From: Stegostoma tigrinum | Taxonomy: Eukaryota | DNA: 64,000 nucleotides | Direction: 5' to 3' | Assembly (NCBI RefSeq): GCF_030684315.1 | Contig: NC_081362.1 | Span: 16,734,589 to 16,798,588, forward strand | In this document: positions 8,691 to 61,262 of the stretch, piece after piece | Position numbering within the stretch: position 1 is the first letter of the stretch | Layout: the number at the start of each line of letters is the position of its first letter | The notes under the pieces: generated by a model | Told to the model about the DNA's origin: nothing | Database searches by the model: none | Seen by the model: only the letters and a program-made list of their open reading frames with translations | Program-made: the position numbers and the translations under genes

Positions 8691-9049
8691 TTTTCAGATA
8701 GTCACATTAGTAACTATCACCAACCAATGAAGTTATGTTTATGTGTGAAGTCACTCGTCTGTTCTGGGTCCCTGATTCTGGCCTTCAATTTATCCTCTTA
8801 AAAAAAGTTTAAATTATGAGCCAAAGAAAGTACTTATTCCCCTCTGCTCCAGCTTCCCACACTGCCTCCAAATTCCCTGAACTATACACTCACTCAGTCT
8901 ATGTCCCTCTCTGGATGCGACCTCTCCTCCCTGACTGTGCCAAGTTTACTGAGCATATCCACAGTATTTAAGCTGGAGGTTTAAACTTCTGATCACGGGC
9001 ATTATCCTGACCAAACTGCTCCCTGACTCCCAACAACAGTTGAATAAGA

Positions 9050-9403
9050 AATAATGGGAGCTGCAGATGCTGGAGAATCCAAGATAACAAAGTGTGGGGC
9101 TGGATGAACACAGCAGGTCAAGCAGCATCTTAGGAGCACAAAAGCTGACGTTTCGGCCAGGACCAAACAGACCTGGGCTGTTTCTCTGATATACCTACAC
9201 TCACCTTTACTGGCTCCATCCCTGCCTCTTCGACATGCCTGTCTCCACCTGTCTTCTCCTCTATCCATCTTCTATCCACCTCCCCCTATTTATTTCAGAA
9301 CCCCCTTCCCTCCCCCCATTTCTGAAGACGGGTCTAGGCCTGAAACGTTAGCCTTCCTGCTCCTCGGCCTGCTGTGTTCATCCAGCTCCACACCTTGTTA
9401 TCT
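9050..9403. mobile_element. Penelope 3' fragment in fold-back arrangement with hammerhead motif at 9322-9349 (+)
   Basis: 9050-9160 is the reverse complement of the element tail; plus arm has CTGAAGA-cgggtctaggcct-GAAACGTT and ends at gttatctc. Confidence 0.85.
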
Positions 9404-24002: not shown

Positions 24003-24622
24003 GTAAGTTGAATCACACTGCCTGTATCTAGGGTATCATTTACTTACGCTGTTTTTAACCGCATGTTTACCCCAGTTTCCACTGCTAACTCTGTGTTGGC
24101 ATGAAACATTCTTTATGTCAGTTTATGGACCTGCTTTCCACTGGTGGCACACATTCCTTGTTCTGGCGACACGTAGCCTCATTGTATGGGATTTTCTGTC
24201 TACTGCAACATCTTGCAATTCCAACTATGGGAATAACTTCCCATTTTTAAGTAAATGAAATCAATATTAGATGTTTAGTCAAACATTTCCAAAACAAATT
24301 GGAATGTTAAAACTGCCCCTGTCCTGTGTACCAGAAAAGGACAAAGAAATAGTGATAAATTAATTTATTAATTAATTCAGTGACAAAGAATTGATTCAGT
24401 GAATTTCTTGTGTAATAACTGTAAATAGATCTTGAGGTACTTATTGCTTAACTTTAATGGGGACATTAAATTATTGGGTTAATGTCAGCATTAAAGTTAT
24501 GCTCATTAAGAAAAATGTTGAATCACGCAGGTTGAAATAATGAGAATTTGTATTAAGTTTGATTTCTAATTTTCTTGCAAGTTATGTTTTGCGAAACTTG
24601 CTTCTGAAACAAACCATGAATT

Positions 24623-24650
24623 CTGATGAAGGGTCTAGGCCCGAAACGTC
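24623..24650 (+). ncRNA. Minimal type I hammerhead ribozyme motif
   Basis: CUGAUGA-A-GGGU(CUAG)GCCC-GAAAC-GUC; conserved core intact, palindromic ACGU in place of stem III; activity untested. Confidence 0.75.
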
Positions 24651-24713
24651 AGCTTTTGTGCTCCTGAGATGCTGCTTGGCCTGCTGTGTTCATCCAGCCT
24701 CACATTTTATTAT
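24623..24713 (+). mobile_element. 91-bp Penelope 3'-end insertion consisting of hammerhead core plus tail, with 9-bp TSD
   Basis: Appears identical to 50006-50096; flanked by ccatgaatt at 24614-24622 and 24714-24722. Confidence 0.92.
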
Positions 24714-24771
24714 CCATGAATTATATTTCTTGTCTGTCATTTAAAACAGTCTCCAAATTCTCTGCCTTTAG

Positions 24772-29572: not shown

Positions 29573-30755
29573 CAGGTTCCAACCACCACCTCTTTACCGT
29601 GGATGTGCAATCCCTTTACACGTCCATTCCCCACCAGGAGGGTCTTTGGGCTATCCCTTTCTTCCTGGAGCAAAGACCTGAACCGTCCCCACCCACCATC
29701 ACCTTCCTCCACTTGGCCAAGCTCGTCCGCACTGTCAACAACTTCTCTTTTAATGCCCCTCAATTTCTGAGGGGTGGCCTTGGGCCCCGGTTATGCCTGT
29801 ATCTTCATGGGGTACGTGGAACATTCCTTGTCCCAGTCCTATTCCAGCCCCCACCCACAATTCTTTCTTTGATATATCGATGCTATCATTGGCGCTGCTT
29901 CCCTGTCTCATCCGGAATTGGAAAAATTCATCGAATACTCCTCCAATTTCCACCCTGCCCTCACTTTCACCTGGTCTATCTCTGACTCCTCCCTTCCCTT
30001 CCTCAACATCTCTGTGACACTCTGGTCCACTCTTCCACCACCCTCAACATCTCCCCACATCCCCACAGCACCTTCCTCTGCAACCAGCGACCATGCAACA
30101 CCTGCCTATTTACCCGCACTTCCCAGAATCTAGTCTGCTGCATTCACTGCTCACAATGTAGTCTCCACAACATTGGGGGAACTACGCTTAGACTGTGTAA
30201 CCACTTCACAGAACATCTATGTTCTGCTGACAAAAAAGACCCTGAACTACCTGTTGCCTGCCACTTTAACACACCACCCTGTTCCCTGGACAACATCTCT
30301 GTCTCTGGCTTACTGTAGTGTTTCAGCAAGCTGGAAGAACAGCACCCATTTTCTGGGGACCCAGCAGCCCTCCAGACTCAATATCGACTTCAATAATCTT
30401 AGGGCCTAAACTCTCCCATCCCAGCCCCCTACCACACATGCCAGGTCTTGTTATCACTTAGCCTGCCACTACACACTACTTATTGTTAGTCTCTAACAGT
30501 CGCCATTAACAACTATTCCCAGCCAGATCGTTATCAACTCCTTTGTCTATCCAACTGCTCTTCTCTCTCTTCAGGCTCTATCCAATAATTTACTCCCTAC
30601 CCCATCCCCCTCCCTGTTTTCTGCATATAAACCAATGTTTTCCCAGCTACCATCAGTTCTGAAGAAGGAGACCAGACACGAAATGCTAACTCTGAATTCT
30701 TCTTCACAGGTGCTGCCAGACCTGCTGAGCTGTTCCAGCAACTTCTGTTTTTGTT
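29573..30755 (+). mobile_element. Degraded Penelope-like element: RT, GIY-YIG and 3' end with decayed hammerhead (~30659)
   Basis: DVQSLYTSIPHQEGL (RT motif A), NNFSFN, NFHPALTFTWSIS...LPFL; GIY-YIG remnant at 30130-30409. Confidence 0.9.
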
Positions 30756-32687: not shown

Positions 32688-33433
32688 GCCTCCCTCCCCA
32701 GAATCCAAGGGCCCAAACATACCTTCCAGGTGAAGCAACACTTCACCTGTACTTCCAAGAATCTATTCTACTGCATTCGCTGCTCACAATGTGGTCTCCT
32801 CTACATTGGGGAAATGAAGCGTGGACTTGGCGACCGATTCACAGAACATCTATGTTCTGTTCTCAAAAAAGACCCTGAACTACCTGTTGCCTGCCACTTC
32901 AGTGCACTACCTCTGGCCAACATCTCTGTCTCCGGCTTGCTGCAGTGTTCCAGTGAAACCCAAGCTGGAGGAACAAAACCTCGTTTTCCGCTTGGGGACC
33001 CTACAGCCCTCCGGACTCAATACTGAATTCAATAATTTTAGGCCATAAATTCTCCCATGACCCAGCCCCCCATCCCAAACACCAGGCCTTGTTACCACAT
33101 AGCCTGCCACTACACACCCCCTGTTGTTAGTCACTTACAGCCCCCTTTAACAACTACTCACCCTCCCAGCCTGATCGTTAGCAACTGCTTTGTCTGTCCA
33201 ACCATCTTTCTCTCTCTTTGGGCTCTATCCTATCGTTTACTCCCACCCCAGCCACCTCCCTATTTTCTGCATATAAACTAACGTTTTCCCAGCCACCATC
33301 AGTTCTGAGGAAGGGTCACCAGACCCAAAACGTTAACTTTGTTTTCTCCTCCACTGATGCTGCCAGACCTGCTGAGCTTTTCCAGCAACTTTGTTTCCTG
33401 ATTTACAGCATCCGCAGTTCTTTTGGTTTTTAA
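32688..33433 (+). mobile_element. 5'-truncated Penelope-like element (GIY-YIG plus 3' end); hammerhead at 33305-33334 with GAAA>AAAA change
   Basis: NLFYCIRCSQCGLLYIGEMKRGLGDRFTEH in track ORF 32583..33026. Confidence 0.92.
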
Positions 33434-39420: not shown

Positions 39421-41429
39421 CAAAAGCAAAACTTTGAGTTTTTGGAGGTCTGGCATCATTACACTTCCCTCTGTTTCCTGCTAGGTATGTTTAAATCTTG
39501 GCTCTGCAATGCAGAACAAACTGAACTTACTGGGAATGACTCACTTTATACTGTCTCTAATATCAAGAAAAAAAAGTGTATTTTAACTAGAGTAGCACTA
39601 TAAGAGGTCTCATGCTTTTGCCAGAATGGAAGAGAAACTGTAGTTGCTCCTGACATACCATTTCGCTATTTAAAACAAGTAGTAATTGGTCCAAATGGTA
39701 AAATCTTCAGATTGCTGAAGACTAGATGTATGGACCAGGAAGCCCCTATGCAGAAGTTCTGAGTTAATGTAGGTTGCTCAAGTAGGATGGACTTAAAACT
39801 GGCAATTCCCTGCACTCCTGGAACCTCCAAACAGATCTCTAACTTTGAACTGGAATCAGTGAATCAAACAGTTCTGATGTGCTAACCTTGATAGTATTTG
39901 GGAAATATTAGAAAACTAATTCCAGATGTAACTCCAATATGACTGACCCAGAGTTACAATTATTACCCCACCCTCTACCCTATCTCTCGACATTACCTGA
40001 TGAACCATCCAATCCACATTACTAGTCCATTCAATGACTATTCTCTGACCAGCCAACCCCACCCAACCTGCTCCTAAGATGCTGCTTGGCCTGCTGTGTT
40101 CACCCAGTTCTACACCTTGTTATCTCAGATTCTCCAGCATCTGCAGTTCCTTGATTATCACCAAACCTCCTTGACAACTGTTCACCCCACTCACCTGTGA
40201 TCTGTCCAAACCTCAACTCTACCCATTTACTTCACTCACTTAACTACTCATTCCTTCACTCTGAACGTTTAAACTTATATTATAGAACATAGAACAGTAC
40301 AGCACAGAACAGGCCCTTCAGCCCACAATGTTGTGCCGACAAATGACAGCTAGTGTTGTATAAACAGGGCATGCCTTGTTTCCTCTCCCCTAATGCTTCT
40401 GTGCTGCTTCAATTGAAGGTTTGCTCAATGTTTCTGAAGAATTTGGGATCCAAATTCTTGGCTGAAAATGCAGAGCTGCATAGGGGTGGAGTAAAGTAAA
40501 AGAGTTGTGGCAATCCGATATCAATAACAGCACAGCAGGAGATTTTGGTCACTGTTCAAGGCACTAATTGCCTTATCTGAGGGATCCTGTCCCTTCAAAT
40601 CACAAGCTATTGACAGAGAAAACTCTCTTTTGTGCAGGTTTAAAGCAGATTAAAACTTGCCTTACGTACATTAAATGTTTGCTTTCATCCTAACCTCAGA
40701 AGAACACCTTTACTATGGCAGCGTATCACTTTTATTTCTCACAGAAGTCATCCTCTTCGTAATTTCTCTGAGTGAGGTTAGACACAGTTTTTTGTGACAG
40801 AAGCACATCATTTTACAAAGATGATTCAGGTCAGATTATTTCAGCCAGCAGACAGAGGAAGCTTTCATTCCATATATTTATACTGGATTCAAATCCTGGA
40901 TCTAGAGGTGAAAGGACAGACTGCTGAACTATAGTGCCACTCAACCCACAAAGCCGATGCTTCTATTTATGTTCAAAGCTCCAGTAGCAAGGCACAGTAC
41001 TGAATAACTAGAAGCAATTACAATCGAATAATCTGGTTAAATGGTACATATAATGTTGAAAGCTGTGAGGATGAAAACATTACACTCATTTGAATCCCAA
41101 ATCACACCATGTTTAATATTTACACTGGATGGAGCTTTAATTGTAAGGGATTGTTTTATTTTCTTTGAAGCCCATATTTATACAAGCAATACCAAACATA
41201 TTGGATGAGAATTAAAGTACTGATTTTTTTCTCACTGTTAATGCAAGGTAATACCACAACTGTATAATTGTTACTACGTTTGCTATTTTAGTAGAAAATA
41301 ATATTACATTCTAGCATAAAAATGGTGCAGTGAGAATACACAATAGAAGATGAAAAAGGCTATCAATAAGTGGGAAAACATGACTTAACTGAAGTACATC
41401 TAAAACATTCCAGGTGTTGTTAATCTGAG

Positions 41430-47236: not shown

Positions 47237-48026
47237 GTAGGTCATTCAGCTGCTAAGACCAATTTTGTTATCTCATTTTTCAGGGTTGTCAATTCAAGGT
47301 TGTCAAAATAACCTAAAGCTAACTATTGTTACAGATCCTGTATAAAACGTTTACAATTTCTGTTTGTCGCACTTATTAGGTGAGGCTTATTGGTGGAGTA
47401 GACAACTTTCAACCTTGTGTACCTACGTGGCACCATGCATCACTATGTTGAGTGTAGGGTGAGCCATACAGCGCTCTCTTCGCTCCAGCCTTTCAGTGAG
47501 CCTTTGCACTAAACTGAAGAGTATTCTCTGATGCACCAGTGTGAAATTTTCTCTTTCCCACACCAGCTGTCCTCCACGCCTCGCCAAGAAACAACCTCAG
47601 TGGTGCCAAATTCTTAGCAGACCCACGAATAGTTTGAGGTGGGTCAAACCCATTTCACTCAATCCCTCAGAGTCAAATGTGACTCCCATTACAAGATTCA
47701 GCATTTTAATAGCCAGTAGTGAGAGGAAATTTTCATTCTATCAGTCTAGGCTAAATTGTAAACCTGGTTAAGAGTGTTAAACGTGTTCATTTCCATCTTA
47801 TCATAACTTTTACTGTACTTGTAGATTATTGTGTACCTACAAGTTAGCAATGATGATATCTTGTAATAAAACAGATATCTGCCCTTTGCATAAGTCAGTC
47901 ATTTAGATTTTGAAATGTTTTTATTTTAAAAATTGAAGCATAACCTGTGTGCCTCTGTCTAAGATAATAACATGTGAGGCTGGATGAACACAGCAGGCCC
48001 AGCAGCATCTCAGGAGCACAAAAGCT

Positions 48027-48054
48027 GACGTTTCGGGCCTAGACCCTTCATCAG
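48027..48054 (-). ncRNA. Minimal hammerhead ribozyme motif (antisense arm)
   Basis: gacgtttcgggcctagacccttcatcag is the reverse complement of CTGATGAAGGGTCTAGGCCCGAAACGTC. Confidence 0.75.
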
Positions 48055-48795
48055 AGAGGGGGATGGGGTGAGGGAACTGGAAGAAATAGGGAGGGAGGGG
48101 GAGGCGGACCGAAGATGGAGAGTAAAGAAGATAGGTGGAGAGAGTATAGGTGGGGAGGTAGGGAGGGGATAGGTCAGTCCAGGGAAGACGGACAGGTCAA
48201 GGAGGTGGGATGAGGCTAGTAGGTAGCTGGGGGTGCGGCTTGGGGTGGGAGGAAGGGATGGGTGAGAGGAAGAACCGGTTAGGGAGGCAGAGACAGGTTG
48301 GACTGGTTTTGGGATGCAGTGGGTGGAGGGGAAGAGCTGGGCTGGTTGTGTGGTGCAGTGGGGGGAGGGGACGAACTGGGCTGGTTTAGGGTTGCAGTTG
48401 GGGAAGGGGAGATTTTGAAACTGGTGAAGTCCACATTGATACCATTAGGCTGCAGGGTTCCCAGGCGGAATATGAGTTGCTGTTCCTGCAACCTTCGGGT
48501 GACATCATTGTGGCACTGCAGGAGGCCCATGATGGACATGTCATCTAAAGAATGGGAGGGGAAGTGGAAATGGTTTGCGACTGGGAGGTGCAGTTGTTTG
48601 TTGCGAACTGAGCGGAGGTGTTCTGCAAAGCGGTGTCCAAGCCTCCGCTTGGTTTCCCCAATGTAGAGGAAGCCACACCGGGTACAGTGGATGCAGTATA
48701 CCACATTGGCAGATGTGCAGGTGAACCTCTGCTTAATGTGGAATGTCATCTTGGGGCCTGGGATAGGGGTGAGGGAGGAGCTGTGGGGGCAAGTT

Positions 48796-48948
48796 GACAT
48801 CTGGGATGTCCAAGTTCTTCAAGGCGCACATCCCAGATGTCCAAGTTCTTCAAGCCGCACATCCCAGATGTCCAAGTTCTTCAAGACGCACATCCCAGAT
48901 GTCCAAGTTCTTCAAGGCGCACATCCCAGATGTCCAAGTTCTTCAAGG
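48796..48948 (+). repeat. Five tandem units, period 31 nt (cgcacatcccagatgtccaagttcttcaagN); first unit partial and partly inverted
   Basis: gatgtccaagttcttcaag starts at 48805, 48836, 48867, 48898 and 48929. Confidence 0.97.
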
Positions 48949-49799
48949 ACTGCAACTTTCCCCCCACAGTGATCGAGAACGCCCTTGACCGCGTCTCCCG
49001 TATTTCCCGCAACACATCCCTCACACCCCGCCCCTGCCACAACCGCCCAAAGAGGATCCCCCTCGTTCACACACACCACCCTACCAACCTCCGGATACGA
49101 CGCATCATCCTCCGACACTTTCGCCATTTACAATCCGACCCCACCACCCAAGACATTTTTCCATCCCCACCCTTGTCTGCTTTCCGGAGTGACCACTCTC
49201 TCCGTGACTCCCTTGTTCGCTCCACACTGCCCTCCAACCCCACCACACCCGGCACCTTCCCCTGCAACCGCAGGAAATGCTACACTTGCCCCCACACCTC
49301 CTCCCTCACCCCTATCCCAGGCCCCAAGATGACATTCCACATTAAGCAGAGGTTCACCTGCACATCTGCCAATGTGGTATACTGCATCCACTGTACCCGG
49401 TGTGGCTTCCTCTACATTGGGGAAACCAAGCGGAGGCTTGGACACCGCTTTGCAGAACACCTCCGCTCAGTTCGCAACAAACAACTGCACCTCCCAGTCG
49501 CAAACCATTTCCACTTCCCCTCCCATTCTTTAGATGACACGTCCATCATGGGCCTCCTGCAGTGCCACAATGATGCCACCCGAAGGTTGCAGGAACAGCA
49601 ACTCATATTCCGCCTGGGAACCCTGCAGCCTAATGGTATCAATGTGGACTTCACCAGTTTCAAAATCTCCCCTTTCCCTACTGCATCCCTAAACCAGCCC
49701 AGTTCGTCCCCTCCCCCCACTGCACCACACAACCAGCCCAGCTCTTCCTCCGCACCCACTGCATCCCAAAACCAGTCCAACCTGTCTCTGCCTCCCTAA
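48929..49799 (+). CDS. C-terminal part of the Penelope-like ORF (linker with Cys/His motif plus GIY-YIG endonuclease); RT missing
   Basis: PCNRRKCYTC...NVVYCIHCTRCGFLYIGETKRRLGHRFAEH...VANHF...EQQLIFRLGTLQPNGIN, open frame; the start at 48837 is an artefact of the tandem repeats. Confidence 0.9.
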
Positions 49800-50005
49800 C
49801 CGGTTCTTCCTCCCACCCCAAGCCGCACCCCCATCTACCTACTAACCTCATCCCACCTCCTTGACCTGTCCGTCTTCCCTGGACTGACCTATCCCCTCCC
49901 TACCTCCCCACCTATACTCTCTCCACCTATCTTCTTTACTCTCCATCTTCGGTCTGCCTCCCCCCTCTCCCTATTTATTCTAGTTCCCTCTCCCCATCCC
50001 CCTCT

Positions 50006-50033
50006 CTGATGAAGGGTCTAGGCCCGAAACGTC
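50006..50033 (+). ncRNA. Minimal hammerhead ribozyme motif (sense arm)
   Basis: CTGATGAAGGGTCTAGGCCCGAAACGTC in the 3' repeat of a GIY-YIG element, the established location for Penelope hammerheads. Confidence 0.78.
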
Positions 50034-51049
50034 AGCTTTTGTGCTCCTGAGATGCTGCTTGGCCTGCTGTGTTCATCCAGCCTCACATTTTATTATCTTG
50101 GAATTCTCCAGCATCTGCAGTTCCCATTATCTCTGCCTCTGTCTAAGTCTCTTTTACATCCTATGATCTGTATGTCCTTGCAAACTATATACTGCTCGTG
50201 AACAAAGCTTTTCACAGTACTTAGGTACATGTGACAATAAATAAATCAAAATCAAGTCAAATATGCAACACACCTACTAATATTTTTCCTCCTGCATGGA
50301 CCCCTGGGCAGTGGCTTCCAGAACCAGAAGTCATTGCAAGGAACAGTGTCAGTGCGCCAAGCAATGTGCATGGATCCTCAGAGTGTCAGTGTGGCCATAT
50401 AGCCTGGAGGAAACTCTGCCAATACATTGGTTTTGCAAAATATCTTTTTTGCATCATCGAATAATTGAATATCCTTTGTAATGGATGTGGCTTCAAAACC
50501 ATCAAAGGCGGAAAAAAATCAAATACTAAATATTTAATCCTAAGACAGGCAAATACTCATATCACCTTTCCTTCCTTGGGTAAAAAAACAAAATGATACT
50601 ATAGTCTGCAGGCATGAAGCTAAATCTACAGCTGAATCATAAATAATTTTATTAATCCCTCAAACACAGCTCTGAAGATGATGATTATGAATTTCAGCAT
50701 CATGCAATGCGACAGTTTATTTTTAAAAAAGTAACATAAGAGTAATTCCCAATCCCAGCAGGGAGCATTGCTGACAGGAAAGTGAATTGGAGGTTTCACT
50801 TTTATTTACATTGACCTTTCAGCATGGCTTCACTATTGGAAGTTGCTGATAATGTAGCTGAGTTATTTTAATTTCCGAAATGGATCCAATTATCAGCAAT
50901 CAGCAAAAAACAAGGACAAAATCTGTGACTTTTTACTGTACTCTGCAGAATTTTATGGGACAGGTAATTTTGGATTGAACTGCTAGTTTCAAATTCCAAG
51001 CATTCATGTTTTTCTACTAAATGATTGATAATGTCTTGATTGAGTTGTG

Positions 51050-59350: not shown

Positions 59351-60287
59351 CAGTACTCTGCTGATTGGACTCAGACCTGAACTTGTCCAAAATTCTACTG
59401 CTCTAATCCAAGCTTATACTAAGATGTGTTTACATAATCTACATTCACTTCTGATTAGATAGGTGATTTCTAAAATCTTATCCTTGTTTTTAAAGTCTCT
59501 CCATGGCCCCTCCCCTTTCTGGCTTTGTAACCTTTCCCAGAAGTGAAACTCCACAAGATCTCTGTGCTCGTCCCATGTTGTCATGTTGTACATCCAAAAT
59601 TGTAATCGCTGTGCCATCAGTTATCAAAGCCACAGTTATTGGAATTTCCTCCGCAGGCCACTGCACCCTGCTCTTCTCCTTTAAGAAGTTATTTAAACTT
59701 TCTTTGACCGAGCTTTTTGTTGCTTGCCTTAATAGCTCCTCATGTGGCTTAGTGTCAGACTTGTCTGGTAATACTCCAGTGAGACACATTCTAACTTTTT
59801 ACTACATCAAAGATGCTTTATAAATGTACATTGGTACTTGAAAGGCATGTAATTCACAATGATGTCAAGCAGACATTTGTAAATAAAACCCACTCAAATT
59901 TGATCTATTCTGCCAGAGTCTTCAGCCAGTTTTCCCCACACTGCAGTTTTCTTCTTAAACTATTCATCTTGCTGCATTTGTCCTCTGTGTCTTCAGTGCT
60001 CATTGATAAGAATAGTTTGAGTAGATATTGAGAAACCCTTTCTACTAAAGGAAGATGCCAGCACAAGGGAACATGACGTTAAATTCAATACCAGGCTGTT
60101 CAGAAGAAAAGTTAGGAAACACGTGTTCGATCTTCTCTACAGAGGCAAGCGGGTAATTCATCCAGTTAAGTCCTGCATTGCAGCCATTTTGTGTCAGTGC
60201 TGGTATTTTATCAACATCAAATTTGTTCCCCATTGTATTCCAGTTCAATCGAAGTGGCAAAGCAGCAACAGGTCATCTCTCCAACCA

Positions 60288-61262
60288 ATGGGCCCCTGGT
60301 TTGTGATATACATAATGATCTGGAGGAAGGTATAAATGGTCTGATTAGCAAGTTTGCAGATGACACGAAGATTGGTGGAGTAGCAGATAGTAAAGAGGAC
60401 TGTCAGAGAATGCAACAGAATATAGATAGATTGGAGAGTTGGGCGGAGAAATGGCAGATGGAGTTCAACCCAGGCAAATGCGAGGTGGTGCATTTTGGAA
60501 GATCCAATTCAAGAGTGAACTATACGGTAAATGGAAAAGCTCTGGGGAAAATTGATGCACAGAGAGATCTGGGTGTTCAGGTCCATTGTACCCAAAAGGT
60601 GGCAACGCAGGTCAATAAGGTGGTCAAGAAGGCATACGGCATGCTTTCCTTCATCGGACGGGGTACTGAGTACAAGAGTTGGCAGGTCATGTTACAGTTG
60701 CATAGGACTTTGGTTCGACTACATTTGGAGTACTGTGTACAGTTCTGGTCGCCACATTACCAAAAGGATGTGGATGCTTTGGAGAGGGTGCAGAGGAGGT
60801 TCACCAGGATGTTGCCTGGAATGGAGGGCACTAGCTATGAAGAGAGGTTGAGTAGATTAGGATTATTTACAGTAGAAAGACAGAGTTTGAGGGAGGACCT
60901 GAATGAGGTCTACAAAATCATGAGAGGTACAGACAGGGTGGATAGCAAGAAGGTTTTCCCAGAGTGGGAGGCTCAATTACTAGGGGTCACAATATCAAGG
61001 TGAGAGGGGAAAAGTTTAAGGGAGATATGTGTGGAAAGTTCTTTTCGCAGAGGGTGGTGGATGCCTGGAACGCGTTGCCAGCGGATGTAGTAGATGCGGG
61101 TATGATAGCATCATTTAAGATGCCTCGAGACAGATACATGAATGGGCAGGGAGCAGAGGGATACAGATCCTTGGAAAATAGGCAACAGGTTTAGATAGAG
61201 GATCCAGATTGGCGCAGACTTGGTGTGCAGAAGGGCCTGTTTCTGTACTGTAATTTTCTTTG
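60288..61262 (+). mobile_element. 5'-truncated, fairly young CR1 LINE (RT C-terminus plus 3' UTR)
   Basis: ISKFADDTKIGG, KWQMEFNPGKCEV, LEYCVQFWSPHYQKD in track ORF 60191..61003. Confidence 0.95.

Follow-up and report, generated by a model that had tools for sequence, protein, structure and literature searches.

The question raised by this locus is how a short tandem array came to lie at the broken 5' end of a mobile element insertion, and whether it was made by repeated copying during insertion or by slippage afterwards. The array is found at 48794-48950 of the window (the whole stretch of 64,000 nucleotides that was analysed), within an insertion that consists of head-to-head inverted repeats and is flanked by a target-site duplication (TSD). 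In the coordinates of the window, the insertion has the following features.

47950..47963, plus strand: left TSD of 14 bp; the same 14 nt occur at 50134-50147
47964..48794, minus strand: inverted arm, the element 3' part lacking the terminal tail, from the proximal 3'-end site (alignment, tail absent)
48795..48809, minus strand: a single additional base followed by 14 nt of the unit in antisense (sequence, orientation map; locus L050)
48805..48917, plus strand: tandem array made of a partial unit and three complete 30-nt units, plus the junction bases (TRF, sequence)
48825-48854, 48856-48885 and 48887-48916, plus strand: the three full 30-nt units, identical to each other (sequence)
48918..50133, plus strand: 5'-truncated direct copy with the end of an open reading frame (ORF) with a weak GIY-YIG match, pseudo-LTR region and tail (Pfam, family columns)
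50006..50033, plus strand: candidate minimal hammerhead-ribozyme-like core in the 3' region (motif search)
50099..50133, plus strand: optional tail of ~35 nt between two 3'-end sites, at which reverse transcription starts (340 element ends)
50134..50147, plus strand: right TSD, matching 47950-47963

Judged from its sequence and layout, the insertion fits a young, endonuclease-bearing Penelope-like element (PLE). The C-terminal end of the ORF matched the GIY-YIG endonuclease weakly (Pfam E=0.0012, 19.5 bits, under the cut-off of 22.6). Two of four frames from longer family copies gave a match to the reverse transcriptase (RT) domain upstream of the endonuclease (RVT_1, E=1.5e-5 and 2.5e-5, likewise under the cut-off), and this region is truncated away in the copy at 48918..50133. 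A cysteine cluster ahead of the GIY-YIG match presumably recalls the Neptune clade. A PDB sequence search found no relative, and an Rfam search returned no hammerhead match and only a sub-threshold match to H19. The direct copy is about 95% identical to the family columns; the inverted arm is 96% identical to the direct copy (800/837) and has two rare alleles in common with it, which have family frequencies of 0.6% and 0.9%. The 3' ends of 340 element ends fell into two classes, tailed and tail-less, so that the family has two end sites and an optional tail of 30-40 nt, and poly(A) is absent. A 39-nt degenerate tandem repeat in the element 3' region is present in both arms (49668-49779 and 48299-48410) and is family sequence. 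Elsewhere, the window contains short solo 3'-end pieces of the young family (24622-24714, which is 100% identical to the family columns, 9047-9156 and 40069-40150), older Penelope-like fragments that are about 66% alike to the young family (29583-30015 and 32689-33009), and an open frame at 60170-61003 that matches an RT domain weakly (RVT_1 of Pfam, E=2e-5) and is a repeated LINE-like piece.

The original prediction described a 30-nt unit recurring with a period of 31 nt, in which only the junction base varies (G, C, A, G), and this was confirmed. TRF, the raw sequence and the coordinate print agreed on the structure of the array: at 48805-48948 it has a period of 31 nt, 4.6 copies, 97% matches and 0 indels, with G at 48824, C at 48855, A at 48886 and G at 48917 as the junction bases, and the truncated direct element begins straight after it at 48918. 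The outermost copy (48796-48810) reads gacatc-tgg-gatgtc, with the loop inverted as predicted at the start of the inverted arm, one base beyond the inner end of that arm at 48794. The last 5 nt of the antisense unit copy at 48796-48809 double as the start of the sense array, which results in a palindromic join at 48805-48809. The 28-nt core of the unit has 10,841 occurrences in the 3.2-Gb assembly, while the unit-to-unit junction is unique to the array (4/4 matches in the assembly lie there); the array is therefore not part of the family consensus, in agreement with the prediction. A 333-codon open frame spans the array. A coding role was considered and rejected, as this frame is incidental and 31 is not a multiple of 3. 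The array shows no sign of function and appears as a by-product of integration and an ordinary member of its class.

The varying junction base had been attributed to non-templated addition, and this held for one of the four bases at most. In other family copies a C precedes the unit and a G comes after it; G and C can therefore be templated from either side at the same 31-nt period. Three of the four junction bases (G, C, G) can be accounted for in this way from the family sequence, and the A alone has to be put down to an extra base, a mutation or a slip. With a change of 1.2-2% per site, the probability of two or more changes among four initially identical junctions is 0.0009-0.0024, and zero change across the other 139 array sites is expected fairly often (0.06-0.19). 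Variation restricted to the junctions is thus unlikely to stem from later mutation (p 0.001-0.002).

Reiterated loci of the family were collected by eight doubled-anchor pattern searches of the assembly. Of 248 parsed loci, 13 were excluded because they belonged to other families or were a paralog, which left 235 family loci; the two richest anchors were sampled (68 loci from 127 matches and 44 loci from 116 matches). The first anchor, which corresponds to the position of the array, gave 42 matches in 31 loci, one of them a paralog. In all 30 independent loci the reiteration of this segment was located at a 5' truncation or inversion junction, compared to 8 of 61 unselected copies that end within 70 nt of the same anchor. 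The predicted enrichment at such junctions was therefore found, and it supports the claim that the copying took place at insertion and was not later slippage. Across all anchors, the repeats were at the 5' junction in 214/235 family loci and internal or running far upstream in 21/235 (p=1e-32 for confinement to the 5' junction). Repeats of at least 12 nt were present at 6/56 unselected visible junctions, one or two of the six being marginal, versus 1/305 internal windows (p=7e-5), and about one in ten sampled family copies has a junction repeat at its broken end. Inverted copies were more common among the reiterated loci (159/205) than among unselected family junctions (29/56, p=3e-4). The 28,462 copies of an older CR1-like family yielded 4 doubled anchors, and none of these was clearly located at a 5' junction; this control is weak, as the family is old and its copies are about 75% alike.

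The age of the units was estimated from 113 loci. Units and main copy differed at 35 of 2,828 sites (1.2%), and three rare alleles (0.11%) were common to both, compared to 0.49% rare alleles carried by the main copies, which indicates that units and insertions are of about the same age. The number of units can change later: the paralogs L038 (C2) and L065 (C33) represent the same insertion with the same flank in a segmental duplication, and contain two and three units, respectively. Arrays of 8-11 units at the junction were seen at L150 (G000:C37:37466500-37469000), L308 (G000:C33:39730500-39732100) and L295, and at L308 the individual units have since diverged. Slippage after insertion probably lengthened some of the long arrays with identical units, and 5' junction repeats may seed minisatellites.

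Repeats were found at all 8 anchors. The units had a median length of 43 nt (27-78 nt at the 5th-95th percentile), and each unit starts at the truncation point of its own locus. The unit ends were concentrated: at each of the three richest anchors a single 5-nt window took in most of them (29/36, 41/61 and 24/38), and the unit starts were spread (11, 17 and 13). The ends directly follow G/purine runs and precede an A (z up to 14 for ends after G runs; p about 0.001 on distinct sites). They also lie 2-5 nt before the bonds favoured by a model of human RNase H1 cleavage preference taken from PMC5728404, as far as its available text gives it (z about 10; p=0.02 on distinct sites), and the five minor anchors, taken by themselves, gave the same fit (p=0.02). 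It needs an offset of 3-4 nt, however, and the plain G-run rule performs equally well or better. An HIV-type RNase H rule fitted poorly and was not significant on distinct sites. The unit ends are not copies of the RT start motif of the element, as the start sites read differently. Among the unit starts, a site preference was seen per junction and was not significant on distinct sites (p=0.06-0.23). Hairpins or G-quadruplexes, in RNA or cDNA, were considered as the source of the end hotspot, but the folds there were weak and differed from copy to copy. In two loci (L059 and L070) the reiterated 5' units lead into a forward jump (an internal deletion) at the same end hotspot, and one complex junction (L164/L185, G000:C1:10029000-10032855) has a reversed piece of the element 3' end between repeated units.

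The overlap at the back-jumps, i.e., between the end of one unit and the start of the next, was 0 nt in 90 and 1 nt in 55 of 193 junctions; it is 0 nt at the array at 48805-48948. Overlaps are slightly above chance, under which 0-1 nt is expected in 80% of the junctions versus the observed 65-75%. An overlap of at least 2 nt was found at 48/193 back-jumps and at 41/71 simple arm-to-unit joins (p=2e-6), and one of at least 3 nt at 20/193 back-jumps. Among 64 arrays with at least two junctions, 38 hold one period, 10 vary by 1-3 nt and 16 have larger shifts. The units shrink outward in all 16 informative arrays (13/13 start shifts and 3/3 end shifts, p=3e-5), a count from which three 4-nt shifts were dropped by hand as parser ties; at locus L279 the shrinkage occurs in two steps. 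At 211 loci the length of the outermost unit was compared; it was the shorter one at 92 of them, of equal length at 105 and longer at 14. Single bases inserted at the junctions were, on the sense strand, 10 A, 5 T, 4 C and 1 G, some of which are perhaps slips or mutations.

The original prediction had derived the inverted arm from a hairpin-guided strand switch. In 78 of 81 reiterated inverted copies with both ends visible, a tailed arm was paired with a tail-less arm, and the same pairing was present in 14/15 control inverted copies. A single cDNA that folds back would not stop so regularly at the second start site, and priming of a second cDNA on the opposite strand accounts better for the 831-bp inverted arm. 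What stands of the hairpin is the 5-nt join at 48805-48809, which is most simply a 5-bp patch joining two antisense ends. Complex joins are common, since 51/158 inversion joins hold extra pieces of at least 10 nt.

The explanation that we favour, and consider probable if not strongly so, is that the array arose at insertion, when the RT of the element copied a short fragment cut from its own RNA again and again by jumping end to end. Both strands are nicked 14 bp apart, as the TSD shows, and two RTs would likely start at the two adjacent sites of the RNA, yielding one tailed and one tail-less cDNA; we infer from the observed pairing that the two RTs work on one RNA. One cDNA would halt at the broken 5' end of the RNA, here at family position -12/-13. 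The RNA of the new hybrid would likely be cut just past a G/purine run (AAG/G at this locus) by a nuclease that may be host RNase H or similar, leaving a fragment of 25-80 nt whose end preference is the one observed. The RT would then likely jump from the 5' end of this fragment to its 3' end with 0-1 nt overlap and copy it again, with the single base at the jump varying. Every round would let the fragment be cut further, making the outer, later units equal or shorter, in line with the observed shrinkage. Finally, the cDNA ends, or cDNA and target, would be joined with more microhomology; at this locus two antisense ends likely annealed through the 5-bp palindrome of the unit. What is observed is where the units lie, how old they are, at which sites they end, how little they overlap and that they nest outward; RNA as the template, the nuclease and the unwinding are what we infer. 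The individual activities have precedents in the available text of two reports: L1 ORF2p forms concatemers by adding non-templated bases and jumping between templates (PMC10830420), and the PLE protein of the anole can extend either strand, initiating at two sites that bound the tail (PMC11167929).

Some observations weigh against copying by RNA jumps. An untemplated A on the cDNA would read T, so the prevalence of A among the single inserts on the sense strand (10/20) leans toward sense-strand synthesis. The model has to unwind a 30-bp hybrid in every round, and part of the outward shrinkage of the starts could be due to a final join at the cDNA terminus having been selected for. At a back-jump of L301 (G000:C15:67166100-67167500) there are 16 A in a row, which suggested a tailed RNA end, but the same locus also has an expanded run of ~25 G in its inverted arm. 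The 38/64 arrays that hold one period, and the paralogs L038 and L065 with their differing unit numbers, show that slippage takes place later as well. A further-reaching version, in which repeat addition is intrinsic to the PLE RT and a dimer uses one RNA for twin priming on both strands and cycles a G-run-ended template piece of 25-80 nt in cis, processively, up to about ten times, is possible and we regard it as doubtful.

The main competitor, which we consider rather unlikely yet serious, places the repetition in second-strand synthesis. The 3' end of the target or of the second cDNA would prime on the single-stranded 3' tail of the cDNA, extend to a block, be released and prime again at the cDNA end or close to it; the block would be leftover RNA or a downstream primer, and the polymerase the RT itself or Pol theta. 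This accounts for the location, for starts that are specific to each locus and, if RNA remnants form the block, for the shared ends. It fits the sense-strand A and the extra pieces at the inversion joins, and, given a gradual removal of RNA, it predicts the observed growth of end shifts toward the element body. According to the available text of PMC9962433, direct templated insertions arise when Pol theta realigns repeatedly. Yet the same text gives microhomologies of 3-10 bp and insertions of 3-10 nt, compared to a back-jump overlap near chance and units with a median of 43 nt in the Penelope family. In addition, the model requires start positions that shift toward the cDNA end with time in 13/13 arrays, twice in L279, and the CR1-like family, weak as it is as a control, had no doubled anchors clearly at a junction. 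Far less probable is the realign-and-copy synthesis on intact RNA that the original prediction modelled on telomerase, in which the cDNA end pairs again downstream and a defined template is copied once more. Its outcome would resemble repeat addition, PLE RTs are reported as relatives of telomerase (available text of PMC3846280), the RT of a PLE can initiate inside an RNA without homology (available text of PMC11167929), and a minority of junctions has overlaps of 2-5 nt, slightly above chance. Against it, an alignment region is absent, as the overlap is 0 nt at the array and 0-1 nt in 145/193 junctions, the repeated segment varies by locus and is found at all 8 anchors, and the unit ends after G runs are unlike the start sites of the element itself. 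This part of the prediction was not upheld.

That slippage or unequal exchange after insertion produced the array, with later point mutations as the junction differences, we hold to be very improbable. Unit numbers do change after insertion, as in L038 and L065, long uniform arrays such as L150 exist, and the 21/235 loci with internal or far-upstream repeats have longer overlaps. As the sole origin, slippage is refuted by the confinement of the repeats to 5' junctions, by units that are as diverged as the insertion is old, by the junction-only variation of the array and by the finding that at least 26/64 arrays have junctions of differing length. Least probable of all is an error of assembly or consensus at the array. 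Logan contigs of one sample crossed both outer insertion junctions without differences, and the contigs of three runs included none on 48786-48821; a bisulfite run likewise gave none. Contig building, however, drops rare paths inside repeats of thousands of copies, and more than 200 analogous junctions have a common end signature and ordered nesting.

The weight of the finding rests on rules that hold across the family and not on the single array at 48805-48948. For the completion of PLE integration and the origin of the head-to-head arrangement, the family supplies two rules that can be counted: each inverted arm uses one start site, and approximately a tenth of the 5' junctions carry nested, G-run-ended repeats. 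The later steps of PLE integration are stated as not validated in the available text of PMC11167929. If the RT makes the repeats on RNA, then the RT group closest to telomerase can synthesise repeats with no dedicated template; if host repair makes them, they form a large natural record of cDNA-end joining. Should an intrinsic habit of the RT prove true, thousands of junctions would record a primitive, template-agnostic repeat synthesis and seed new minisatellites. The component parts are already known, namely template jumping with added bases, R2 junction repeats and inverted PLE arms with an optional tail. In the literature searched, which was mostly without subscription papers or preprint supplements, neither junction-confined nested re-copying in PLEs nor a counted pairing of tailed and tail-less inverted arms was described.

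Among known elements, the endonuclease-bearing PLEs of rotifers with inverted pseudo-LTRs (Pen2a_Av type) carry the optional tail on only one of the two inverted repeats, at its 3' end (PMC3846280). They resemble the family of the array in their head-to-head inverted arms, the TSD, the optional tail and palindromes at some inversion junctions. Self-priming was proposed for them and the available text of that paper describes no tandem re-copying at 5' junctions, whereas the pairing in 78/81 copies points to twin priming here. The Poseidon PLE of the anole, studied in vitro, is similar in having two adjacent RT starts that bound the tail, cutting and extension of both strands and, in Poseidon, a predicted dimer and a hammerhead motif, to which the candidate core at 50006-50033 may correspond (PMC11167929). 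That work, in its available text, covers initiation and not 5' junctions or repeats; it reports no difference in start site between the strands and does not address pairing within an insertion. L1 ORF2p (PMC10830420) and R2 in PRINT (PMC11371274) also generate concatemers by end-to-end jumps with an overlap of 0-1 nt, and snap-back and extra-template 5' junctions of non-LTR RTs occur in cells, according to the available texts of both reports. In those texts the non-LTR RTs jump to other RNA or DNA, whereas here the 5'-terminal segment is repeated in cis, and the preference for G-run ends and the outward nesting distinguish the Penelope family from such jumps. The 5' junctions of R2 have short tandem repeats, sometimes in three copies, similar to those of the Penelope family (PMC3774820, PMC2718515); as far as the available texts go, these repeat the 28S target at a fixed site, while here element sequence is repeated at variable truncation points. 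Pol theta insertions likewise contain direct and inverted copies of the sequence flanking the junction, made by repeated realignment, but measure 3-10 nt with 3-10 bp of microhomology in the available text of PMC9962433, compared to 25-80 nt with 0-1 nt here. Telomerase and DRT2 produce tandem copies of an RNA segment by an RT, as may be the case here, and in the available text of PMC12039810 they do so with a dedicated template, an alignment or primer-binding motif and a functional product, in contrast to the accidental segment without these in the Penelope family. The Penelope arrays resemble telomerase and DRT2 in outcome only and are a member of neither.
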